Below, piece by piece: positions 16,173 through 62,250 of a stretch of 64,000 nucleotides of DNA. The DNA is taken from positions 50,571-114,570 of the forward strand of contig JAWXUX010000006.1 in the NCBI GenBank assembly GCA_044426045.1, given 5' to 3'. Numbering within the stretch: the stretch's first letter is position 1; each line of letters starts with the position of its first letter. A program made the position numbers and the translations under genes. This DNA is from Bacillota bacterium (GTDB taxonomy: Bacteria; Bacillota; Clostridia; Christensenellales; CAMQZB01). Under the pieces are notes generated by a model that saw only the letters and a list, made by a program, of their open reading frames with translations, was not told the origin of the DNA and ran no database searches.

Positions 16173-17279
16173 TTAGTTATTTGGAATCTCCCTATAATCA
16201 AGCTTAAAATCCAATCCACTTTCATCCATAAACATCTCATAAACTTTAATGTCTCTATCTTTCACCAATTGCAACAATATACCTTTATTTTCCTTACTCA
16301 TCTTGCTTCCAAGATATATTGCTTTAGGTTTAAGAGTTTTTGTAATTATTTTTTCTGTATTAGGACGACAAGTCAATATATAGCGCCACTCTTTTTCATA
16401 TGCCCAATCTTGTGATTTAGCTGTATTCGTTTTTACATAATGAAGCATATCTGGCACAATTATAGGCTCGTTATGCCCTATCGCAAATTGCAATCTATGC
16501 TTTAACATTTCATATTCATAGTTTGTAGCATCATAACGCATCTTAGAATAAATTATAGGATATAGTTCTAGCACATGCTGCTTGTTGCATTTATTTTGGC
16601 ACTTGTAGCATTGGAGTTTCAACTCAGACATATCGTCAGTGTCATATTCCAAACAAAATCCCTTATGGTAATCACTATAATGCGACCACATCAAAACCGA
16701 TGTTATCTCTTCAGAAAAACAAACTACACCAATCTCTTCCCGATGATCTTTTTGATGAAAAGCATGGCTTTCTTTAGCATATTGCTCTATATATGGACGA
16801 ATTTGCTCTTCCATTGACATTTCCAACAGACTTTCACGCAACCAATTAATATTTTCCTGTGAGGCTTCCATAATAGCTTTATGCCCTATTTCTACCACTT
16901 TTTCAAAATTAGTAGTCTTCATATCTTGCAAAGTTATTTCTCCACTTCTAACTTTCTCAATATTTTCTAGAATCTTCTCATTGCTAAACTCCTGCGCGAT
17001 TAAATCATCTACAAAAGTTGCCGAAACATGATAAAGACAATCGTATGGATCATTGAAATCAATTGGTTTAGAAAAATAAATTTTATCTTCTAGCAATGCG
17101 GACATGGAAAATTCAGATACAGACCTATATCTAAATAAACTTTTAGGCATAATTTTCGACTTTATAATATCAAGCTTTCGATATACTTCATCTTTGTGTT
17201 CATTAGTTGCATCACTTGGAATTTGCGATGCAAACAACAACTCAGCATATTCTTTCAATAAGTCATCACGTGTTTTCAT
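16173..17279 (-). CDS. DUF2971-family protein
   Basis: LFRYRSVSEF...KIYFSKPIDFNDPYDC matches the DUF2971 N-terminal signature as I remember it. Start set at the ATG at 17279, after a GAGGT RBS. It starts about 40 nt downstream of the restriction gene. Confidence 0.65.
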   Translation of the reverse strand: MKTRDDLLKEYAELLFASQIPSDATNEHKDEVYRKLDIIKSKIMPKSLFRYRSVSEFSMSALLEDKIYFSKPIDFNDPYDCLYHVSATFVDDLIAQEFSNEKILENIEKVRSGEITLQDMKTTNFEKVVEIGHKAIMEASQENINWLRESLLEMSMEEQIRPYIEQYAKESHAFHQKDHREEIGVVCFSEEITSVLMWSHYSDYHKGFCLEYDTDDMSELKLQCYKCQNKCNKQHVLELYPIIYSKMRYDATNYEYEMLKHRLQFAIGHNEPIIVPDMLHYVKTNTAKSQDWAYEKEWRYILTCRPNTEKIITKTLKPKAIYLGSKMSKENKGILLQLVKDRDIKVYEMFMDESGLDFKLDYREIPNN

Positions 17280-19855: not shown

Positions 19856-20918
19856 TCTTTATTTCTCCAACTATTTTTTTCAACATTAATGGTGGGATAG
19901 ACTCACCTATACACTGCCTAATCAGTATTTCAGAAGTATCGTCAGGAATATTCCAATTTATTGGCAATGAATTTAATATCATCAACTCCAAGGGAGTAAG
20001 CACTCGTGCATCTGAATATGTGCCGTCTTTCAACAATCGACCAGGATGCACATTTCTTTGTGAACCTATACAATCGTTCCTTATAGTTATTGTAGGAGCA
20101 GGCAAATCCCACCTTATTCTCCTATACGAAGATTCATAACCCTTAATTTTTGTGCCATCATCTTTTTGAGGATAATATTTTTCATTTGAAAAAGCCGATT
20201 CCCCAGTTGGGGTATGTCTCATCCATAAAATATTAGATGTGCTATGTTTTCTCGCAAAGTGCCATTTAATATCTGATTTCTCCCCAGCTTCCAAGGATGG
20301 TAAATTACCAATAGCATCCTCAACTGAAACTTTCTGTTTCACAACTGTTGGCCAATTCCAAACTTTATCTTTTTTACACATCTTAATTATAGCCCTCATG
20401 CGTGTTTGAGGCACACCATAATCAGACGAATCAACTACTTTGCTTTCAATGTTATATTCACAACCAAATTCTTCTTCCAAAATTTCCATAACAGACATCA
20501 TCGAATGCTTATAATAAATTTTAATTTTCAATAATAATGGTACATTCTCAATAAGCACATATGTAGGAGTTGTTTTTTTTATAAAATTAATAACATACGT
20601 TATTAAATAGTTCCTCTCATCACTAACCATTAAATCTTGTGAACGATTTTTACCAGCCACACTCATGCCTTGGCATGGCGGAGATGCTAACAAAAAATCA
20701 AGATCTTTAGGACAGTTATCAATAATACTATTGAAAACCTCAGCATTAGTTATATCGCCAGTAACAACCGTTGTTTCTGGTGCAATTGCTCGATATAATT
20801 CTGCTCTTTTCGGCAACAATTCATTAGCTACAACAACATCAATTCCAACGTCTTTGAAGTAGGTCTCCCCTATTCCTGCACTAGCAAATAAAGATACGGC
20901 CTTTAATCTCTTACTCAT
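19848..20918 (-). CDS. DNA (cytosine-5)-methyltransferase (first of a pair)
   Basis: FASAGIGE (I), ASPPCQGMS (IV), ENVP (VI), QTRMRAI (VIII), GESIPP (X). Its end overlaps the start of the second MTase by 8 nt. Confidence 0.9.
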   Translation of the reverse strand: MSKRLKAVSLFASAGIGETYFKDVGIDVVVANELLPKRAELYRAIAPETTVVTGDITNAEVFNSIIDNCPKDLDFLLASPPCQGMSVAGKNRSQDLMVSDERNYLITYVINFIKKTTPTYVLIENVPLLLKIKIYYKHSMMSVMEILEEEFGCEYNIESKVVDSSDYGVPQTRMRAIIKMCKKDKVWNWPTVVKQKVSVEDAIGNLPSLEAGEKSDIKWHFARKHSTSNILWMRHTPTGESAFSNEKYYPQKDDGTKIKGYESSYRRIRWDLPAPTITIRNDCIGSQRNVHPGRLLKDGTYSDARVLTPLELMILNSLPINWNIPDDTSEILIRQCIGESIPPLMLKKIVGEIKNG

Positions 20919-21280: not shown

Positions 21281-22618
21281 TCACCCTCCAAACACTTCAT
21301 CGAGTGCATCGGCGGCGATTCGGTCGCTGCTTTTTAGGAAGTGGCTGTAGATGTCGGTGGTGGTGCTGGTTCTTGCATGTCCTGCTCTGCCTGATACTGT
21401 GACTAGTGGCACTCCTGCTGATATTTGCATGGTGATATTTGTGTGCCTGAGCGAATGGACGGTGATGTGGTCGAGCCCTGCTTTTTCTAGCGTTTTATCT
21501 AGCCAATTTCTTATTGTTGCAGGCGCTATCGGCGAGCCATTCCATTGCACGAACAGCCTGTTGCTATCTTGCCACGTATCTCCAAGCTGAGTTTTCGTTT
21601 CTTCATACCATTTTAGATATTCAGCAAGCGTTTCGACTAACAATTCCGACATAGCAATTGTCCTCTTGCTCGTTTCCGTTTTTGGAGATTCCGTTATCGT
21701 TCCAAATTCCTTGACTGTGACCACCGAACGATTTATTGATATTGTTTTATCTACTAGGTCTATATCGCTCCATTCGAGCCCACACAGCTCGCCACGTCTT
21801 AACCCCGTGAGTAGCAAGATTGACATGGCGGATTTAATCCTTATATCATCAAGCTGTGAAACTGTTTTATAAAAAACCTTGGCTTGTTCATCACATAGAA
21901 ACTCTATTTCCTTTGGCGGTCTTTTTGGAAATGTTATGAAGTCAGCTGATGCCCAATTATCTTGAATGAGCCTTTGTCTTTTAGCTTTTGCGAGTATCGC
22001 ACGTACAGTTCGTTTTATTTTATGTATTGTTTCATAAGCATACCGTTCTTTTTTCACCATCACATTGAATATTTTTTTCACTGGCATATTCATTATTTTA
22101 GCCACTTTTTCCGCAGTTTCAAGGCTGATATTTCCACCTTTCAGCAGTGTGTTGAGTGAGGGCGAAGCCATTTTATTATCTTTATGAAAATCCCTATATC
22201 TCAAACCATGCTCTTTCATGAGTTCTCTGAAATCACCTTTTGAAGTCACTGTTGTTATAACTTTTTGTTTCTTATCAAGCATATCATAACAATTTTGAAT
22301 TGCCACTGGCGTGAGTTCTTTCAGCTTATATCCACCAATATATTCGTTAGCCATTTTGAGTGCGAACACCGCATTTGAATAGTAGCTGAGTGACAAATTG
22401 TTTCTCACATCCTCCAACCACTTTTCTGCATATTCTTGGAATAAAGTATCTGGCGTTGTATCTAGCCCATTGCATCCGCCCGAAATGTCCTTCATTTCTT
22501 GTTCAAACTTTTCCGCAAGCAAGACTGCTCCACGTTGCATTTGCTTTGCAGTGAGCCCCTTTTCAGGCTTATACGTTGTTGATTTTGTAACAATTTTTCC
22601 ACTGCCTTTATCTTTCAA
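21281..22618 (-). CDS. int: tyrosine recombinase / integrase
   Basis: LTGLRRGELCGLEWSDI (R), HSLRHTNIT (HxxR), GHARTSTTTDIYSH (H..Y). The N-terminal SAM-like region reads ..TYKPEKGLTAKQMQRGAVLLAEKFEQE. It has a TTG start overlapping the stop of a small upstream ORF. Confidence 0.9.
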   Translation of the reverse strand: MKDKGSGKIVTKSTTYKPEKGLTAKQMQRGAVLLAEKFEQEMKDISGGCNGLDTTPDTLFQEYAEKWLEDVRNNLSLSYYSNAVFALKMANEYIGGYKLKELTPVAIQNCYDMLDKKQKVITTVTSKGDFRELMKEHGLRYRDFHKDNKMASPSLNTLLKGGNISLETAEKVAKIMNMPVKKIFNVMVKKERYAYETIHKIKRTVRAILAKAKRQRLIQDNWASADFITFPKRPPKEIEFLCDEQAKVFYKTVSQLDDIRIKSAMSILLLTGLRRGELCGLEWSDIDLVDKTISINRSVVTVKEFGTITESPKTETSKRTIAMSELLVETLAEYLKWYEETKTQLGDTWQDSNRLFVQWNGSPIAPATIRNWLDKTLEKAGLDHITVHSLRHTNITMQISAGVPLVTVSGRAGHARTSTTTDIYSHFLKSSDRIAADALDEVFGG

Positions 22619-23622: not shown

Positions 23623-24217
23623 AACAATAACAGAAGTTGTAGATTTTTTCAAATCGCAAGATGCAGAAACCGCTGTCACCAAAAATTTACTTGCTAAACT
23701 TGTAAAAGACGGCGAAATATGCTCTGTGAGAATAGGTTCAAAATTGCTAGTCAATCTCGACGAATGCATCAGCTTTTTTAAATGCAACGCTGATATACAG
23801 TCAACAACTTCACAGCTACACGCTGTCACCAAGAGATCAATGCACACCACTGGAGAAATAGCGAGACTCTTTCTCGCTCACGATCAAAACACCCGAGTTC
23901 GCAGAAGCATGGTGAAATCAGCAATAGCAACCAAACAAATCAACGGAATTTGGCTATATCAAGGTTATTGGCTTATTGATATACAGGATTTTATCAACAT
24001 ACTCACAAATGGGAAAACCTTCGCCACAACCAACGAAGTGCCTAGAATAAGAAACTACGAAAAATCCTACCACACCCTACAATCCGAATACCCAAACTCC
24101 GCCCCAACATGGAACCAACTCCACACCCTAACAAAAAACAAAACGGTCACCACATATTATCATGGCAACCGTTGGATTGTGAATTTGGATGAGATTATAG
24201 ATACATATTATCGATAA
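23603..24217 (+). CDS. excisionase-like DNA-binding protein with three HTH_17-type repeats
   Basis: MYLPRIRTITEVVDFF..LLAKLVKDGEICSVRIGSKLLVNLDECISFF; TTGEIARLF..INGIWLYQGYWLIDIQDFINIL; PRIRNYEKSY..WNQLHTL..YYHGNRWIVNLDEIIDTY. GAGGTG RBS. Confidence 0.65.
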   Translation: MYLPRIRTITEVVDFFKSQDAETAVTKNLLAKLVKDGEICSVRIGSKLLVNLDECISFFKCNADIQSTTSQLHAVTKRSMHTTGEIARLFLAHDQNTRVRRSMVKSAIATKQINGIWLYQGYWLIDIQDFINILTNGKTFATTNEVPRIRNYEKSYHTLQSEYPNSAPTWNQLHTLTKNKTVTTYYHGNRWIVNLDEIIDTYYR

Positions 24218-29282: not shown

Positions 29283-31376
29283 ATGGCTGTTAGATACAGA
29301 ATAGAAAAAGTTATAGAAAAAATAGAGAACGACCCTAGCGGGAAAATCGTTCTTGAAAAGTCGCAAATTTTATACGACGAGATTGAAAAATGCTTCAAAC
29401 TGCAAAATAAATTCATCAACAAAAGCGGTGGATATATCGACGGCGTGATTTGCACAATTATTTGCTACCGCGAAAACGGCGAAATTCTTTGCCGAATTGG
29501 CGGTTCAATTCGCGAAACAGTGGGAGATGGCGAATATTTTGCAACTCAAACACTGAAAAACATAGCAAGTGCCGACGTTTCTGAAATCACGGTTGAAATC
29601 TTGGAAGTGCTTGAATGTGCAAATCCACCAATTTCAACAATCAAAAAACAAGGCGTGCCAAAAGCTGGCAACGCACCTCAAAATAACACAGCAACCGAAG
29701 AAGCACGCTTGAAAGCAAGAGCCGAGGCAAAAGCAAAAGCGGATGCCAAAGCGGAAGCCGAGGCAAAAGCCAAAGCGGAAGCTAAAGCAATCGCAACAGC
29801 AAAAGCAAAAGCAGAAGCGGAAGCTAAAGCAATCGCAACAGCAAAAGCAAAAGCAGAAGCGGAAGAAAAAGCAGCAAAAAAAGCTCAAGCAGAAGCCGAG
29901 GCTTCCAATAAAGCCCAAGCGCAAAAAGAGGCAGCAGCACAAGCAAAAGCACAAAAAGAGGCGGAGGCAAAAGCAGCGGCAGAAGCAAAAGAACAAGAAA
30001 AAGCCCAAGCAAAAGCCCAAGCTGCCGCAAATGCGGAAGCGGAAAAACAGCAAAAAGCGGAAGAAAAAGCACAAAAAGCGGAAGAAAAACTCGCTCGCAA
30101 AGCTAGCAAATCACCAAAAAACGCAAAAAAAATTGTTATTATCTTGATGGCAATTCTGCTTATCTGTGCAATTCCCGCCGTCATCTTTTTATCAATTGAC
30201 CAAGATGCACAAAATGGGTTCATTATTGAAGATGGTGTTTTGGTGGAATATACCGGCGAAGGTGGCGACGTGATCATTCCAGACAGCGTCACAGCAATTG
30301 GAGACCGCGCATTCCTGACAAACGGGACAATAACAAGCGTTACTATCCCCGACAGCTGCACAAAAATCTACAACTACGCTTTTTCGAATTGTCGTTCACT
30401 TACCCAAGTTGATCTTGGCGGTGTTCAATCTGTTGCAGATTACGCTTTCACAAATTGTTCTAGCCTTGAAAATATAGACTTGAAAAATGTTTCAGTGATA
30501 GGCGAAGGGGCGTTCAGCTCTTGCAGTTCTCTCAAATCAGTAGAATTTTGCGACGAACTGTATTTGATTAACACCAAAACATTTTCTGAATGTAGCAGTC
30601 TTGAAAATGTGGATTTCAACAATGTCACACAAATTAATGATAACGCGTTCATTCGCTGTTTAAGCCTCACAGATTTGAACCTTGAAAACGTTCAAAAAAT
30701 TGATTCCTATGCATTTTATTACTGTTCTGAGCTTGAAAGCATCTCGTTTGGTGCTGATTTGTCACAAATATGCCTCTTTGCTTTTTATAATTGCAGTGCA
30801 ATAGAATCTATCAATTTCGATGAATCATTAGACGTTAGCACAGTGATTTTTGAAGCCAATGCCTTCCGACTTGATGACTTCCCAACTTGCAACGTTGTTC
30901 TTGATTACGATGTGATTTCTAATTTTATAGATATCAGGGAAAATGTTTACGAGGTTCTTGCCGATATTATTTCACAACATGAATCGTTCTATTATTCAGA
31001 TCACACAGTGAGACATAACGACGTTGATATTTTGTGCACGTCAGTTCTTTATTCCGACAGATATGTCAGTATTTGCTTATATGAAGATGGCACGGTTTAT
31101 ATATTTACCGAAGGCGATGATAATTTTACTATAGAATTACGATTTGCCTGGAGCGAAGACAGCGTTTATTATAAACGCTCATCAACAAAATACAACGCAG
31201 AATTTGATTATTATTCAAACGACTTTTATTACAACAATACCCTTTATTGGGATCAAACGATTTCGGATAGTATGAACGAATATTTCATTGAACAAATAAA
31301 CTTTGCAATGAGCCTTCTTGGCGATTATGTTGAAGAGAACGGCTACTCAAAAGAAGATATCTTTCTTTATGACTAG
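29283..31376 (+). CDS. BspA-type leucine-rich-repeat protein with an Ala/Lys/Glu-rich low-complexity region and one TM segment
   Basis: Repeats of the form IPDSVTAIGDRAF..C.SLTSV.. (LRR_5). The AKAEAEAKA region spans about residues 150-260. TM segment IVIILMAILLICAIPAVIFL. Confidence 0.85.
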   Translation: MAVRYRIEKVIEKIENDPSGKIVLEKSQILYDEIEKCFKLQNKFINKSGGYIDGVICTIICYRENGEILCRIGGSIRETVGDGEYFATQTLKNIASADVSEITVEILEVLECANPPISTIKKQGVPKAGNAPQNNTATEEARLKARAEAKAKADAKAEAEAKAKAEAKAIATAKAKAEAEAKAIATAKAKAEAEEKAAKKAQAEAEASNKAQAQKEAAAQAKAQKEAEAKAAAEAKEQEKAQAKAQAAANAEAEKQQKAEEKAQKAEEKLARKASKSPKNAKKIVIILMAILLICAIPAVIFLSIDQDAQNGFIIEDGVLVEYTGEGGDVIIPDSVTAIGDRAFLTNGTITSVTIPDSCTKIYNYAFSNCRSLTQVDLGGVQSVADYAFTNCSSLENIDLKNVSVIGEGAFSSCSSLKSVEFCDELYLINTKTFSECSSLENVDFNNVTQINDNAFIRCLSLTDLNLENVQKIDSYAFYYCSELESISFGADLSQICLFAFYNCSAIESINFDESLDVSTVIFEANAFRLDDFPTCNVVLDYDVISNFIDIRENVYEVLADIISQHESFYYSDHTVRHNDVDILCTSVLYSDRYVSICLYEDGTVYIFTEGDDNFTIELRFAWSEDSVYYKRSSTKYNAEFDYYSNDFYYNNTLYWDQTISDSMNEYFIEQINFAMSLLGDYVEENGYSKEDIFLYD
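29775..29858 (+). repeat. perfect 42-bp tandem duplication inside the LRR gene
   Basis: GCGGAAGCTAAAGCAATCGCAACAGCAAAAGCAAAAGCAGAA occurs twice back to back (encodes AEAKAIATAKAKAE x2). Confidence 0.9.
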
Positions 31377-31506: not shown

Positions 31507-32025
31507 ATGGACAGAAATATAATATTGATTGGAATGCCGGGAAGCGGAAAAAGCACGCTTGGGGTTTTGCTGGCAAAGCAGATGGGTTACGGATATGTTG
31601 ATTCCGACGTAGCAATTCAACAGCGGTGCGGAAAACGCCTTTCGGAATTGCTTTGCGAAAAAGGGTTTGATGGATTTGTTTCTATCGAGGGTGAAACCAA
31701 CACTTTTCTTGCAAAAAGTTTGAAACGCACGGTGATCGCAACTGGCGGAAGTGCGGTTTACAATGAAAAAGCAATGGACGCACTTTGCAAATCGGGAATT
31801 TGCGTGTATCTTGAAGTTTCACTGCCAACACTTTGCCACAGATTAGGCGATTATTCACAGCGTGGCGTGGCACTGCCAAACGGATATACCCTCGAAGATT
31901 TATTTTGCGAGCGCGACCCACTTTATCGCAAATACGCCCGTGTGACACTTTCGGAAAACCCTGAAATTTCCATGCAGGAAGTTGTGCGAAATCTTGAAAA
32001 ACTTATCGCCGATTGCGAAAAATAA
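31507..32025 (+). CDS. aroK: shikimate kinase
   Basis: IILIGMPGSGKSTLGVLLAKQMGYGYVDSDVAIQ.., with a typical size of 172 aa. Confidence 0.9.
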   Translation: MDRNIILIGMPGSGKSTLGVLLAKQMGYGYVDSDVAIQQRCGKRLSELLCEKGFDGFVSIEGETNTFLAKSLKRTVIATGGSAVYNEKAMDALCKSGICVYLEVSLPTLCHRLGDYSQRGVALPNGYTLEDLFCERDPLYRKYARVTLSENPEISMQEVVRNLEKLIADCEK

Positions 32026-32057
32026 CAAAAACAAAAAAACAAAAAAACAAAAAACAA

Positions 32058-32095
32058 CGCCCCAAGTGAAAAACTTCGCTTTGGGCGTTTTTTTG
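32058..32095 (+). terminator. terminator of aroK
   Basis: CGCCCCAAG..GCTTTGGGCG hairpin followed by T8. It is preceded by a (CAAAAAA)n tract. Confidence 0.6.
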
Positions 32096-34690: not shown

Positions 34691-34741
34691 AATTAAAAAT
34701 TAAAAATTAAAAATTAAAAATTAAAAATTAAAAATTAAAAA
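34691..34741 (+). repeat. heptamer microsatellite (AATTAAA) x ~7
   Basis: Read directly. It abuts the terminator hairpin. Confidence 0.9.
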
Positions 34742-42662: not shown

Positions 42663-42790
42663 GCAAAAAGTCTAGGTGCGAATTACGTTGCAGTGCAAAA
42701 AAGTCGCAGTGTGAATTACGTTGCAGTGCAAAAAAGTCGCGGTGCTAAATATGTTGCGGTGCGAAAAACGGCCACGGCGTGAAAAAAAGT
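42663..42790 (+). repeat. ~33-bp tandem repeat, about 3.5 units
   Basis: GCAAAAAGTCTAGGTGCGAATTACGTTGCAGT / GCAAAAAAGTCGCAGTGTGAATTACGTTGCAGT / GCAAAAAAGTCGCGGTGCTAAATATGTTGCGGT / GCGAAAAACGGCCACGGCGTG.. Confidence 0.8.
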
Positions 42791-45625: not shown

Positions 45626-45629
45626 AAAA

Positions 45630-45827
45630 GGTGAAAGGTGAAAGGTGAAAGGTGAAAGGTGTGGTAAGCACTCGGCTTCGCCTCGTGCATACAATATTAA
45701 ATATGAAACTATAAAAGTCACAAACAATTCAAAATGTTTGTGACTTTTTTTATTTTTCAATATAGAAAGCACAAGCGAAGCGAGTGCATTACCACACCTT
45801 TCACCTTTCACCTTTCACCTTTCACCT
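45630..45827. repeat. palindromic heptamer-tipped element, copy 1 (type I centre)
   Basis: (GGTGAAA)x4-GGTGTGGTAAGCACTCGGCTTCGCCTCGTGCATACAATATTAAATATGAAACTA..GTCACAAACA/TGTTTGTGAC hairpin+T7..ATAGAAAGCACAAGCGAAGCGAGTGCATTACCACACC-(TTTCACC)x4. Confidence 0.9.
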
Positions 45828-45885
45828 CAAAAAAAGCGTTCCAAAACACACACGCTAACCCTCGCCAAAACAGCGGGCACCAAAG

Positions 45886-46707: not shown

Positions 46708-46777
46708 AATGACCCCTTTTATAGTACCCTTTTTTATATGATAGCAGATTTTTGGTGAAAAGCCAAGGCTTTTTATA

Positions 46778-46989
46778 GGTAATAGGTAATAGGTAATAGG
46801 TAATAGGTGTGGTAATGCACTCGCTTCGCTTGTGCTTTCTATATTTTAAAATGATAATAGCCAGCAAACTTTATAAATCGTTTGCTGGCTGTTGTAGTTT
46901 CATATTAAAATAATGTGTGCACGGAGCGGAACGCGTAGTGCCTACCACACCTATTACCTATTACCTATTACCTATTACCTATTACCTAT
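46778..46989. repeat. palindromic heptamer-tipped element, copy 2 (type I centre, inverted, GGTAATA variant)
   Basis: (GGTAATA)x4-GGTGTGGTAATGCACTCGCTTCGCTTGTGCTTTCTATATT..CCAGCAAAC/GTTTGCTGG hairpin..GTGCACGGAGCGGAACGCGTAGTGCCTACCACACC-(TATTACC)x6. Confidence 0.9.
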
Positions 46990-47007
46990 TAAAAATGCTC
47001 CGCATTT

Positions 47008-49275: not shown

Positions 49276-49477
49276 ATAATTCTCCATTTCTCTTTTTTAA
49301 GACGTTCAGCTTTTAGCATACCGCCCCGTTTTTCTCTTTGGCAAGTACATCTCGCCACAACAATAGTAGTATACCACACTTTTGTGGTGTTATCAAGGGG
49401 TTTGGGGAGAAAGTTTGGGTTTGGGGGGAAGTTTTTTGAGTAAAATTTTGAAAGGTGCAATGTGCAATGTAAAAAAA

Positions 49478-49679
49478 GTGAAAGGTGAAAGGTGAAAGGT
49501 GAAAGGTGTGGTAGGCACTCGCTACGCTCGTGCACCCTATTTATATTTGGGCAGTAAAAAAGGAACGCTGCTATTGAATAGTTGCGCTCCTATCATGGAT
49601 TACATATATAATTGAAAAGCACAAGGCGAAGCCGAGTGCATTACCACACCTTTCACCTTTCACCTTTCACCTTTCACCT
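49478..49679. repeat. palindromic heptamer-tipped element, copy 3 (type II centre)
   Basis: GTGAAA(GGTGAAA)x3-GGTGTGGTAGGCACTCGCTACGCTCGTGCACCCTATTTATATTTGG..AGGAACGC/GCGCTCCT hairpin..ATATATAATTGAAAAGCACAAGGCGAAGCCGAGTGCATTACCACACC-(TTTCACC)x4. Confidence 0.9.
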
Positions 49680-49692
49680 TAAGCGTAGCGTC

Positions 49693-50118: not shown

Positions 50119-50218
50119 TTTTTATCCCTCTCTATACTCTCTTTTTTCATAGTATACACTACTTAACAAAAAATGTCAACCCCCTTAAACTTTTTTGAGG
50201 GAAAGGGAGGGAGGAGAT

Positions 50219-50437
50219 AGGTAATAGGTGAAAGGTAGAAAAGGTGAAAGGTGAAAGGTGAAAGGTGAAAGGTGTGGTAAGCACTCCGCTTCGCTCCGTG
50301 CACCCCATTATATTTGGCTAGTAAAATAGGAACGCCCCTAAAAAATAGTTACGTTCCTACAAGTGGTTACAAATATAATTGAAAAGCACGAGGGCACCGA
50401 GTGCATTACCACACCTTTCACCTTTCACCTTTCACCT
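50219..50437. repeat. palindromic heptamer-tipped element, copy 4 (type II centre, mixed heptamer array)
   Basis: The left array reads AGGTAAT AGGTGAA AGGTAGA AA AGGTGAA x4. Arms are GGTGTGGTAAGCACTCCGCTTCGCTCCGTGCACCCC.. and ..GCACGAGGGCACCGAGTGCATTACCACACC-(TTTCACC)x3. Centre hairpin AGGAACG/CGTTCCT. Confidence 0.9.
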
Positions 50438-50495
50438 TAAAAAAGCGTCGCAAACAACTCCGCTCACACAAACCAACCTGCGTGCCCCCTCGCTC

Positions 50496-54267: not shown

Positions 54268-54457
54268 AGGTGAAAGGTGAAAGGTGAAAGGTGAAAGGTA
54301 AGGTAGGCACTCGCTTCGCTCGTGCATACAATATTTTTGATTTATGACTATATTAGATTTTTTCATTGTGAAGTGTTCGGTTTTGTAATAAATATAAAGT
54401 AATGGAAAGCACAAGGGCAAAGCCCGCGTGCATTACCACACCTTTCACCTTTCACCT
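54268..54457. repeat. palindromic heptamer-tipped element, copy 5 (divergent centre)
   Basis: (AGGTGAA)x4-AGGTAAGGTAGGCACTCGCTTCGCTCGTGCATACAATATTTTTGATT....GGAAAGCACAAGGGCAAAGCCCGCGTGCATTACCACACC-(TTTCACC)x2. Confidence 0.85.
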
Positions 54458-54759
54458 TTAAAAACAGCGTTCACAACCCCAACTCTCCCCCAAAACAAAA
54501 AAGCGGGCAAAAAAAAATCCCCCACAGCAAAATCGCAAAGCCGCGGGGGGAAAGGTGATAGCTATTAAATTATAATTGAAAGCAGATTTCCATCTCGAGG
54601 TTGGATTATAAAAACACCAACCGTACCGCCTATCGGCAGGGACAGAATCGTGCTTTGTGCAAGGCAAAGGGTTATTTGGGCGAGGGCGCGTACTGACGTA
54701 CGTAACCGAGCACAAATGTTCCTTTAACGCAGCAGAAAGTGCGATTGTGGCACTGCCTG

Positions 54760-56079: not shown

Positions 56080-56178
56080 GTGGGCTCTGCCCACACCCGC
56101 AAGGGTGTGACACCCTTGACCCCAATATTGGGGACAGTGGTTTTTAAGTTTTGTTTCTGGAAAAGGCTTCGCCTTTTC
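56080..56178 (-). promoter_or_regulatory. cluster of GC-rich, partly mutually exclusive hairpins in the leader of the dehydrogenase gene
   Basis: GTGGGC-TCT-GCCCAC (56080-94); CACCC-GCAA-GGGTG (56094-107); GGGTGT-G-ACACCC (56103-115); palindrome CCCCAATATTGGGG (56120-133); GAAAAGGC-TTC-GCCTTTTC (56160-178). Confidence 0.3.
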
Positions 56179-56249: not shown

Positions 56250-56326
56250 TTATAATATATTGAATGCACGAGGCAACGCCGAGTGCTTTACCACACCTTT
56301 CACCTTTCACCTTTCACCTTTCACCT
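56250..56326. repeat. palindromic element, copy 6 (solo half: one arm plus heptamers only)
   Basis: ..ATATATTGAATGCACGAGGCAACGCCGAGTGCTTTACCACACC-(TTTCACC)x4. No partner arm lies to the left. Confidence 0.8.
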
Positions 56327-56343
56327 TAAAAAGCTCCGCGTTT

Positions 56344-60521: not shown

Positions 60522-60583
60522 TGGGGAGGGGGTGTAGGTAAGTTTGGGAGAGGAGGGAGTTTTTGGGGGTAGGTAAGTTTTTA

Positions 60584-60786
60584 AGGTGAAAGGTGAAAGG
60601 TGAAAGGTGAAAGGTGTGGATTGCACTCGCTACCGCTCGTGCTTTCTATGTTTCAAAATAAAAAAGTCACAAACAACTTATGTCGTTTGTGACTTTTAAT
60701 AGTTTCCATATTTTAATTTGATATGCACGAAGCGGTACGCGTAGTGCCTACCACACCTTTCACCTTTCACCTTTCACCTTTCACCT
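60584..60786. repeat. palindromic heptamer-tipped element, copy 7 (type I centre, inverted)
   Basis: (AGGTGAA)x4-AGGTGTGGATTGCACTCGCTACCGCTCGTGCTTTCTATGTTTCAAAATAAAAAAGTCACAAACA..TGTTTGTGAC..ATATGCACGAAGCGGTACGCGTAGTGCCTACCACACC-(TTTCACC)x4. Confidence 0.9.
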
Positions 60787-60845
60787 TAAAAAAGCGTCAC
60801 CAAAAACAACGCTCCCTCAACACAAAAAGCGGGCATAAATCAACG

Positions 60846-61872: not shown

Positions 61873-62250
61873 TTATCTGCCACCTCTGCCACCGCCGCCG
61901 CGACCTCCGCCGCCACCGCCACGATGACCTCCGCCACCACGATGACCACCGCCACCGCCGCCAAAACCACCGCCGTGACCACCGCCACCGCCGTTGTTTT
62001 GTTTTATTCTTGTTCGCACTTCCGTTTGATGGGTGAACCTGTCGCGAGAAGCGAGAATTGAACCACCCATTGGCGCGTATGTTCTAAAGTCTGTTGTCTT
62101 TTTACCGCCTGCCCATCTCACAAGCAGAAAAACAACCAAAAGCCCCACAATCACAGGGATTGCGAGCATGAAAACATACATTGACGCAGGAAGTGACAAA
62201 AGTTTTTCCATAACTGTCATATCGTTATAGCTAACGTTATAATTATTCAT
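61873..62250 (-). CDS. small membrane protein with a Gly/His/Arg-rich tail (YdjH-position)
   Basis: One TM segment (MYVFMLAIPVIVGLLVVFLLV). The C-terminus is GGGGGHGGGFGGGGGGHRGGGGHRGGGGGGRGGGGRGGR. Confidence 0.5.
   Translation of the reverse strand: MNNYNVSYNDMTVMEKLLSLPASMYVFMLAIPVIVGLLVVFLLVRWAGGKKTTDFRTYAPMGGSILASRDRFTHQTEVRTRIKQNNGGGGGHGGGFGGGGGGHRGGGGHRGGGGGGRGGGGRGGR

Follow-up and report, generated by a model that had tools for sequence, protein, structure and literature searches.

We analysed a 64,000-nt stretch of DNA (hereafter, the window) from an uncultured Bacillota bacterium (assembly GCA_044426045.1, contig JAWXUX010000006.1, positions 50,571 to 114,570), in which a family of intergenic palindromic elements occupies the region from 45.6 to 60.8 kb. 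Most elements are doublets of two short imperfect hairpins, hereafter called arms. As judged from the sequences, the arm tip varies in sequence and length under a constraint that preserves its self-complementarity. The arms are the end units of a previously undescribed repeat family of this lineage, which most resembles the repetitive extragenic palindromic (REP) sequences and bacterial interspersed mosaic elements (BIMEs) of E. coli, and which we regard as a new family, with unusual heptad flanks, of a known kind of bacterial repeat. The explanation that we favour, and to which we give about an even chance, is that each arm is a REP-type unit read as a hairpin of single-stranded DNA. The resemblance would lie in the mode of working only, and membership of the system formed by REPs and REP-associated tyrosine transposases (RAYTs) is not claimed.

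The window features six palindromic doublets (E1-E6) and one solo arm (E7), which account for 13 arms. Five further doublets and one further solo arm were read downstream on contig JAWXUW010000001.1 of the metagenome-assembled genome (MAG) GCA_044426065.1 (L007 and L205), which is 98-99% identical to the window and represents a sister strain, not the same assembly. In total, the species carries 13 elements in about 36 kb, i.e., 11 doublets and 2 solo arms, with 24 arms of 19-23 nt. The family is also present in four related MAGs (L206, L208, L209, L211 and L212), reached via orthologues of the flanking proteins (64-90% amino-acid identity), which contribute 11 arms. Distinct arms number 21 in this species alone and 30 when the related MAGs are included.

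All element ends share one organization. From outside to inside, they consist of T5-7AA, 4-6 heptads, the tag GGTGTGGTA(A/G), sometimes with one additional base, and the small hairpin. The heptad is usually GGTGAAA; E2 uses ATAGGTA on both sides. The tag reads GTA(A/G) at each arm and lies within the longer conserved motif TGTGGTAR. The hairpin comprises a GCAC foot, 2 or 3 unpaired nt, a GC stem of 2-4 bp, a loop of 3-4 nt, the other half of the stem, again 2 or 3 unpaired nt, and GTGC. In the window, the tag GGTGTGGTAA (at most one mismatch) occurs 13 times, against 2.2 occurrences expected by chance, and 11 of the 13 are inside elements; (GGTGAAA) arrays give 30 matches against 0 expected. 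The regular expression GCAC-N(7-19)-GTGC has 24 matches in the 64 kb, 13 of which are the arms. A first-pass annotation made from the letters alone had listed these 13 arms; all are in place, every sequence that it quoted is exact on a regular-expression check, and the interval on which it centred (45662-45797) covers both arms of E1.

The exact pattern of tag plus heptads gave 0 matches in GTDB species genomes and 3 in the metagenomes of the Joint Genome Institute (JGI), which on inspection were due to chance. In this exact-pattern form, the family is absent from the GTDB species genomes and JGI metagenomes scanned.

Arms fold locally and covary

Each arm, when folded alone, adopts the same shape on both strands, e.g., ((((..(((...)))..)))). 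The arms had been described as small hairpins with a covarying stem, and this holds in two alignments, in which pairing and covariation exceed those of shuffles. When the 21 arms of this species were aligned with MAFFT, standard pairs made up 96.5% of the stem cells, compared with 87.9% after shuffling of partners (observed value reached by 0/500 shuffles), and the covariation score was 0.127, compared with 0.053 (0/500). In a control in which the structure was slid by 1-3 columns, only 11-53% of the cells paired. In a loop-anchored alignment of the 30 arms, which was fitted to the structure by hand and comprises mutually related copies, 99.0% of 197 stem cells are standard pairs, and the covariation score is 0.179 against 0.047 in shuffles (0/500). 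Two-sided changes occur in four of the eight pairs (12 cells) and one-sided changes in none. No G-U intermediate was seen in any arm stem cell. The tip is paired in 100% of the cells, while the internal-loop positions (the two next to the foot) pair in only 10%. These figures, set against the 99.0% of paired stem cells, indicate that pairing is maintained in the stems and avoided in the internal loop.

Compensation extends to the relatives. The GCAC/GTGC foot, reported as an invariant clamp, is invariant within the species; in the relatives it becomes GCAT/ATGC or ACA../..TGT, and AC/GT replaces GC/GC in the inner stem. In L211, the tip at the orthologous E7 site has changed at several positions and is still paired, with near-identical flanks. 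Similarly, the internal loops are symmetric (2x2 to 3x3), as described, in this species, and asymmetric in two of the relatives' arms (2x3 and 0x1). The opposite strand was said to read GA opposite GA. This is true of arms with TC/TC loops; AA/GA, AA/GC, GGA/GTA, GAA/GTA or GGA/GGA is found in the remainder. Tandem sheared G-A geometry is thus compatible with the sequence, and no more than compatible, in about two thirds of the arms.

No doublet consists of two identical arms. Each of the 11 is a heterodimer whose tips are separated by an edit distance of 3-7 and whose arms are usually unequal in length. Because the arms of every doublet differ, it is local folding within the arm that appears to be conserved, not left-right pairing, in line with the earlier suggestion of selection on a folded single strand. 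The alternative offered with it, a dyad-symmetric protein site, fits poorly, since the variable spacing between GCAC and GTGC (11-15 nt) argues for a hairpin rather than a duplex dimer site. A covariance model (R1) run on the window found no extra copies; a 15-bit match at 24043 is not an arm.

Organization and polarity of the doublets

Eight aligned doublets share one polarity, in which an A-arm is followed by a ATACAATATTAAATATGAAACTAT-like spacer, a centre hairpin, a T-rich stretch, AAATATAGAAA and a B-arm. The elements of the window are listed below in these terms; numbers above E7 denote elements outside the window.

E1, 45627-45827, polarity +: doublet made of (GGTGAAA)4-5, tag, A-arm, AT-rich spacer, centre hairpin and T-run, spacer, B-arm, tag and (TTTCACC)4; flanked by an AraC-type (+) and a HAD (-) gene in convergent orientation; identical in the sister strain; orthologous doublet in L208.
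E1 A-arm, 45668-45688, + strand: GCAC TC GGC TTC GCC TC GTGC.
E1 centre hairpin, 45713-45748, + strand: AAAAGTCACAAACA..TGTTTGTGACTTTT followed by T7, terminator-like on the + strand.
E1 B-arm, 45769-45787, - strand: + strand reads GCAC AA GC GAA GC GA GTGC and contains GCGAAGC.
E2, 46775-46991, polarity -: doublet with heptads ATAGGTA / TACCTAT; site empty in L206 and L208.
E2 B-arm, 46817-46835, + strand: GCAC TC GC TTC GC TT GTGC.
E2 centre hairpin, 46859-46890, - strand: AGCCAGCAAAC..GTTTGCTGGCT; the stem covaries with those of E1, E6, E8 and E9.
E2 A-arm, 46919-46941, - strand: sense GCAC TAC GCG TTC CGC TCC GTGC, 3x3 loop.
E3, 49474-49680, polarity -: doublet with type II centre; all right heptads are TTTCACT, not TTTCACC, in the sister strain.
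E3 B-arm, 49515-49533, + strand: GCAC TC GC TAC GC TC GTGC.
E3 centre hairpin, 49561-49591, - strand: - strand reads AGGAGCGC..GCGTTCCT followed by T6; G-T wobble on the - strand only.
E3 A-arm, 49619-49639, - strand: sense GCAC TC GGC TTC GCC TT GTGC.
E4, 50226-50438, polarity -: doublet, type II; the sister strain gains (GGGATAT)5 at the left flank; site empty in L211.
E4 B-arm, 50281-50301, + strand: GCAC TCC GC TTC GC TCC GTGC, 3x3 loop.
E4 A-arm, 50386-50404, - strand: sense GCAC TC GG TGC CC TC GTGC.
E5, 54268-54459, polarity +: the sole doublet opposed to its flanking genes, without a clear centre hairpin; right heptads TTTCACC in the window and TATTACC in the sister strain.
E5 A-arm, 54307-54325, + strand: GCAC TC GC TTC GC TC GTGC.
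E5 B-arm, 54409-54431, - strand: sense GCAC GC GGGC TTT GCCC TT GTGC.
Hairpin beside E7, 56160-56178, - strand: GAAAAGGCGAAGCCTTTTC; orthologue AAAAAGCGAAGCTTTTT in L211.
E7, 56260-56327, - strand: solo arm with (TTTCACC)4; arm at 56266-56286, sense GCAC TC GGC GTT GCC TC GTGC; 1-nt loop difference in the sister strain; orthologous solo arm in L211 with a different yet paired tip.
E6, 60583-60787, polarity -: doublet; centre hairpin at 60662-60697 followed by T6 on the - strand.
E6 B-arm, 60623-60642, + strand: GCAC TC GC TACC GC TC GTGC.
E6 A-arm, 60725-60747, - strand: sense GCAC TAC GCG TAC CGC TTC GTGC, 3x3 loop.

The hairpin next to the solo arm, noted at first pass as GAAAAGGCTTCGCCTTTTC, is present at 56160-56178. 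Further conserved modules (TGCCCGCTTTTT / GCACGCATTT) lie outside the heptads in the outer flanks nearest the upstream gene (45828-45885, 50439-50495, 60788-60845 and others), which also feature terminator-like AGCG(T)-N11-13-(A)CGCT sequences followed by T5-7. Because of these outer modules, the repeated unit must be larger and more mosaic than the palindrome alone.

All elements are intergenic, placed after a stop codon and before the promoter that follows. The A-arm adjoins the stop codon of the upstream gene in 10 of the 11 doublets, E5 having the opposite orientation, and strong promoters of the downstream genes are found just past the element (e.g., TTGACA-17-TATAAT at 54147-54119). G-rich tracts that are C-rich when read on the sense strand (GGGTTTGGGGAGAAAGTTT, present twice, GGAAAGGGAGGGAGGAG and CCTCCCCCCTCTCCCCCC) occur between element and downstream promoter at 49398-49434, 50200-50225 and 60530-60581 in the window and at 16460-16500 in L205.

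The centre hairpin is followed by a T-run in the polarity direction in E1, E3, E6 and E13, two of which were called terminator-like by a scan; a good T-run is missing from E2, E5, E8 and E9. The stems at the centre covary as well (GTCACAAAC, GCCAGCAAAC and GCTACAAAC), and those of E3 and E6 contain G-T wobbles on the sense strand only.

The two arms evolve differently. Variability is higher in the A-arm tip than elsewhere in the element (27% vs 8% between E8 and E9; 47% vs 17% between E1 and E2), and the B-arm tip is more conserved. The sequence of the B-arm on the polarity strand is GCAC-GA-GC-GAA-GC-GA-GTGC or nearly so, with an exact d(GCGNAGC) or d(GCGNNAGC) mini-hairpin motif in 10/11 doublets. 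DNA mini-hairpins of the d(GCGNAGC) type melt at about 76 C owing to a sheared G-A pair, a stability missed by nearest-neighbour models, and their pyrimidine complement is far weaker (PMC13037366). In 10/11 doublets, the strand of the B-arm with the GA form is further downstream than the terminator-like hairpin of the element itself. Judging from this layout, the purine (GA) form is unlikely to act in mRNA, because the B-arm follows the terminator-like hairpin and the downstream promoters lie past the element.

Heptad arrays

Every arm is accompanied by an array of 7-nt units. The period is always 7, and the unit varies with the element and the species (GGTGAAA, GGTAATA, GCTGAAA, AGTGAAA and AATTAAA); its first 3-4 bases are common to the junction. 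Arrays may change wholesale between strains that are 98-99% identical, the rest of the element being unchanged. For instance, all five TTTCACC units of E3 and the junction (49651-49678) are TTTCACT in the sister strain, TTTCACC is replaced by TATTACC in E5 (54443-54456), and (GGGATAT)5 has been gained at E4 (50220-50240). In other arrays, such as that at 56298-56325, the strains differ by a single unit, gained or lost. When perfect tandem arrays with a period of 4-12 and three or more copies are counted, 14/15 in the window, 12/13 in L205 and 4/4 in L209 have period 7. The heptad arrays are the unusual feature of the family.

Stand-alone A-rich heptad arrays without REP-like arms, i.e., (AATTAAA)7, (AAAAAAC)5 and (ACAAAAC)14, are located between a stop codon and a terminator hairpin (34691-34739 and 32018-32058 in the window; 10548-10650 in L209).

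Three ideas about the heptads were discarded. A scan for (GGTGAAA)3 found more than 113 loci in many phyla; inverted arrays occur at only 8 of 113, and those inspected lack an arm of this kind. GGTGAAA is not a special universal motif, since permuted heptads are equally common or commoner in viral contigs, where it has 4 matches against 13, 5 and 53 for composition-matched permutations. Given these controls, the heptad itself is probably not special. Mimicry of Shine-Dalgarno or anti-Shine-Dalgarno sequences was dropped because the complementarity spans only 5 nt and the relatives use AT-only heptads. Selection for left-right heptad pairing as a strict rule was rejected as well, as E5 of the sister strain pairs GGTGAAA with TATTACC. 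A literature search on the heptad returned no relevant paper.

In other phyla, intergenic hairpins with (GGTGAAA)n...(TTTCACC)n stems were observed, in that order in 8/8 cases, and some enclose GC hairpins, e.g., GCCGC-GTA-GCGGC. Such sites were found in Gemmatimonadales MAGs (L090, 29-201; L094, 4791-4931; L041, 7752-7815; L081, 6528-6625; L103, 56-148) and in Parabacteroides (L017, 3929-3995). In a Bacteroidales MAG (L063, 4100-4160), (TTTCACC)3 lies within a region encoding a signal peptide, where a change in copy number would shift the frame.

Copying, gain and loss

Doublets fall into subfamilies (E1/E2/E6/E8/E9 and E3/E4/E11/E13). E8 and E9 share a nested insert of 48 nt, which suggests that whole doublets are copied as units. 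The insert (16324-16350 in E9 and 20354-20380 in E8, both in L205) starts with GTAG, continues with a hairpin of its own (GGTCGCAC-CCAT-GTGCGTACC), and forms a second unit with a GTAG tag, in which the GCAC/GTGC motif recurs.

Every element of the window is in place in the sister strain, and the arms are identical save for one loop base. Across species, orthologous sites are occupied for E1 (L208), E3 (L212) and E7 (L211) and empty for E2 (L206 and L208) and E4 (L211). At the empty sites, the stop codon runs nearly straight into the conserved promoter. To judge from these comparisons, the pattern is that of a long-lived and mostly vertically inherited repeat family with occasional gain and loss.

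A second repeat family is present in L205 (13700-14790, six copies) and is organized as ..ATCCCCCTCAGTC-[small hairpin]-AGCTCCCCC-(GAA/ACT/GTG)-GGGGGCGC.. A block of about 57 nt of this family is found in the sister strain upstream of the alcohol dehydrogenase gene and is absent from the window (at about 56125).

Proposed mechanism and alternative explanations

In the explanation that we favour, each arm would be a REP-type unit, in which the tag (T)GTGGTA(A/G) marks the foot of an imperfect hairpin, and two unlike units, inverted around a spacer of 80-130 nt, would form a doublet comparable to BIMEs and to REP doublets forming hairpins (REPINs). The hairpin would be the form that matters, extruded from single-stranded DNA (ssDNA), e.g., the lagging-strand template, and read by a structure-specific protein, which by analogy would most likely be a REP-associated nuclease-transposase of the HUH/Y1 type. 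Recognition of the hairpin by such a protein would account for the maintenance of the foot, the tag and the unpaired loop, and for changes in the tip that preserve pairing. In E. coli, pairing of the unpaired REP residues abolishes cleavage by the RAYT (PMC3733652), which would give the conserved internal loop a functional reason. In a secondary role, the doublet may be tolerated or may have been co-opted as the end of a transcription unit, with its terminator-like centre pointing along the upstream gene.

Several observations weigh against this explanation. The folding energies of single arms as DNA are weak (-1.2 to -6 kcal/mol, with z-scores from about +0.2 to -2.6, mostly 0 to -2), so that single arms are not more stable than shuffles and energy by itself proves nothing; moreover, nearest-neighbour energies favour the extended left-right duplex over two local hairpins in every doublet. 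The polarity bias (10/11) and the two sense-strand G-T wobbles of centre hairpins show that the element is, at least in part, shaped as RNA. Strains that are 98-99% identical show no insertion polymorphism, and mobility is thus inferred from between-species differences only. A cognate Y1 transposase gene, present as a single copy and flanked by the REPs themselves, is a defining feature of REPIN-RAYT systems; no HUH/Y1 transposase gene was detected by Pfam searches of the 64-kb window or the approximately 17 kb beyond it (about 81 kb in total). Two surveys of REPs report GTAG repeats for Proteobacteria, Cyanobacteria, Chloroflexi and the Planctomycetes-Verrucomicrobia-Chlamydiae group only, not for Firmicutes (PMC3733652; PMC6006769). 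The basal stem is 4 bp long here, versus 5-13 bp (PMC3733652) or at least 7 bp (PMC6006769) in REPs; a second stem of 2-4 bp follows the internal loop of 2-3 nt, as the REP definition optionally allows after a bulge of 1-3 nt. The REP tag is a GT[AG]G tetranucleotide located 0-2 nt 5' of the hairpin foot (PMC6006769), whereas the tag is GTAA here as often as GTAG: in 8 of the 30 distinct arms GTAG lies directly at the foot, while the others feature GTAA at 0-1 nt from it, and a conserved GTGG is found 3-4 nt away.

The strongest competitor, which we hold unlikely but worth serious weight, is an element that works at the RNA level, the doublet being a module of the 3' untranslated region and terminator whose covariation reflects RNA structure. 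The A-arm, in its pyrimidine (TC) form, and the centre hairpin would fold in the upstream mRNA and serve as a terminator, a block to 3'-exonucleases, or a site for RNase III or an RNA-binding protein. The position of the A-arm next to the upstream stop codon in 10/11 doublets, the T-run that follows the centre hairpin in that direction, the covarying centre stems and the sense-only wobbles of E3 and E6 all favour it. In E. coli, REPs stabilise upstream mRNA, which counts in the same direction. RNA roles of REPs are discussed elsewhere (PMC3733652). However, the best-conserved arm, B, with its GCGAAGC and tandem G-A, lies past the terminator-like hairpin and would be transcribed by read-through only, while the A-arm carries U-C and C-U mismatches in sense RNA and is the weaker form. 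An additional terminator-like AGCGT..ACGCT with T5-7 often precedes the heptads, so that transcripts may stop short of the element; the arm stems contain no G-U pair; and E5 is oriented the other way. Rfam gave no match at the gathering threshold, the only sub-threshold matches being to plant miRNA hairpins. The layout points to a real RNA-level role of the centre, which may extend to the A-arm and does not explain the conserved B-arm. A miniature inverted-repeat transposable element (MITE) without structural selection, the duplex ends of which are read by a DDE or other double-stranded DNA transposase while the palindromes are incidental or maintained by template switching, is rather improbable. 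The long terminal inverted repeats (T5-7AA, heptads, tag and arm), the TTAA that abuts about 10 of the 24 ends, and sites that are empty or occupied depending on the species would suit such an element, and template switching can yield apparent compensatory changes. Yet correction by template switching should erase the TC/TC mismatches, whereas about 90% of the cells are unpaired there and the tip is 100% paired. Clean direct target-site duplications are missing, the flanks being inverted (T5-7AA / TTA5-7), and solo arms persist at orthologous sites. Nor was a related insertion sequence (IS) or transposase found in the window, plasmids or phages, blastn searches of the latter two having returned nothing relevant.

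Two further candidates carry far less weight. That GCAC...GTGC is a duplex operator, a dyad bound by a dimeric regulator in the manner of HrcA and the controlling inverted repeat of chaperone expression (CIRCE), is very improbable. The half-sites are invariant within the species, and TAAGCACTC matches 8 of the 9 bases of a CIRCE half-site, a likeness that is superficial. The half-site spacing nevertheless varies between 11 and 15 bp, the second half reads TCGTGC rather than GAGTGC, and the variable spacer is under constraint to pair with itself, which a duplex site does not need; furthermore, two sites per element occur at every operon boundary, unlinked to gene function. CIRCE proper (a perfect 9-bp inverted repeat, TTAGCACTC-N9-GAGTGCTAA, found upstream of chaperones) was rejected because the likeness is confined to one half-site, the spacer varies, and the neighbourhood contains no chaperone genes. 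We give almost no credence to an integron-like array in which attC-like sites separate gene cassettes. Imperfect palindromes with variable centres do lie at the 3' ends of successive co-oriented units over more than 35 kb, but RYYYAAC / GTTRRRY core sites are lacking, the units are multi-gene operons with strong promoters of their own, and housekeeping genes are flanked too. The sole tyrosine recombinase is encoded 23 kb away in a separate island and, with 30.7 bits, falls short of the integron-integrase cut-off of 265. The attC interpretation therefore fails on core sites, promoters and integrase alike.

The arrays invite one more idea, which we regard as a long shot: the tag-hairpin unit and the 7-nt arrays may mark an undescribed, RAYT-independent, hairpin-ended mobile or recombination system in Bacillota. 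A structure-specific ssDNA enzyme would nick at TGTGGTA(A/G), and repeated staggered repair or primer slippage at the nick would lay down the heptads. This would explain the array at every arm, bases shared with the junction, a variable unit with a fixed period of 7, concerted array changes between strains and the near-exclusive occurrence of period 7.

REP, BIME and REPIN elements are textbook matter for Proteobacteria, and a clear REP-like family in Bacillota, with several species, clean covariation, strict heterodimers and polarity, would extend the reach of hairpin-based repeats. The tips offer a test case for the recognition of ssDNA hairpins, as many sequences share one fold and one strand carries the very stable GCGNAGC. 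In practice, the repeats break short-read assemblies of the lineage, and the heptad arrays are fast strain markers. A major concept would be affected only if the enzyme that mobilises the family, or the way in which the heptads arise, proved to be new.

Genomic context and other repeats in the window

The genes near the elements are ordinary chromosomal genes, nearly all on the minus strand, which encode an AraC-type regulator, a HAD phosphatase, a heparinase-like enzyme, a DtxR-like repressor, ABC exporters, an alcohol dehydrogenase and components of the phosphotransferase system. On the sister-strain contig, the family also flanks the core housekeeping genes pyrH, frr, uppS, cdsA and dxr.

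Positions 1 to about 27000 of the window form a low-GC (30-35%) integrative island with no copies of the repeat family. It encodes a tyrosine integrase (21281-22618), three C5 DNA methylases, a 1000-aa helicase, and DUF2971 and ATPase proteins, and is probably a defence island. Its 324-aa methylase was matched exactly on Logan contigs only, not on the contig of the sister MAG.

Three other repeats were noted: a 33-nt intergenic tandem repeat, AAAAAGTCGCGGTGCGAATTACGTTGCAGTGCA, with 3.2 copies (42665-42768); (AAAGCA)n-type coding repeats, rich in Lys and Ala, in the gene of a BspA-like leucine-rich repeat protein (29712-30090); and GCC/ACC-rich repeats (61882-61994) in an open reading frame of 125 aa beside a Band-7 gene, of which a 115-aa version exists on Logan contigs.

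Comparison with known systems

The centre of the doublet, not the arms, resembles an intrinsic (Rho-independent) terminator, since in E1, E3, E6 and E13 it consists of a hairpin and a T-run that point along the upstream gene. Half of the distinct arms carry the exact d(GCGNAGC)/d(GCGNNAGC) motif on their purine-rich strand. This is a physical motif and not an element family; here it sits atop a tandem-mismatch loop and a 4-bp foot, and half of the arms do without it.

Subterminal hairpins of the IS200/IS605 family are also imperfect, contain unpaired bases, are read as ssDNA by Y1 HUH transposases and have a guide tetranucleotide 5' of the foot (PMC6006769). Unlike the doublets, those ends have the same orientation on one strand and need target tetranucleotides; no TnpA/TnpB gene was seen here.

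In REPIN-RAYT systems (Pseudomonas and Enterobacteria), two inverted REPs and their spacer are copied as one, subfamilies coexist within a genome, and different species retain copies at orthologous sites, with a gain or loss now and then, all of which is paralleled here. The present family differs in that no RAYT was found in the approximately 81 kb, the arms are never identical, the polarity is linked to transcription and the centre is terminator-like.

The closest likeness is to GTAG-3 (E. coli-type) REPs and BIMEs, and the comparison with REPs made at first pass is apt. GTAG-3 REPs feature a tag at the foot, a conserved basal stem, unpaired di- or trinucleotides and varied GC tips, with GC/GC, GGC/GCC and longer forms coexisting (PMC3733652; PMC6006769). 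They dimerize as unlike units only, around spacers of 20-100 bp with stem-loops of their own, and also occur as singletons, in intergenic positions at 3' ends (PMC3733652); mosaics with other motifs are a further shared trait. Likewise, REPs are repeated imperfect palindromes of 20-40 nt that form a stem-loop and occur as intergenic inverted dimers and singletons; here, 24 arms all fold alike and are arranged in 11 doublets and 2 solo arms between genes. What sets this family apart from REPs and BIMEs is its Bacillota host and the outer, hypervariable 7-nt tandem array that each unit carries.

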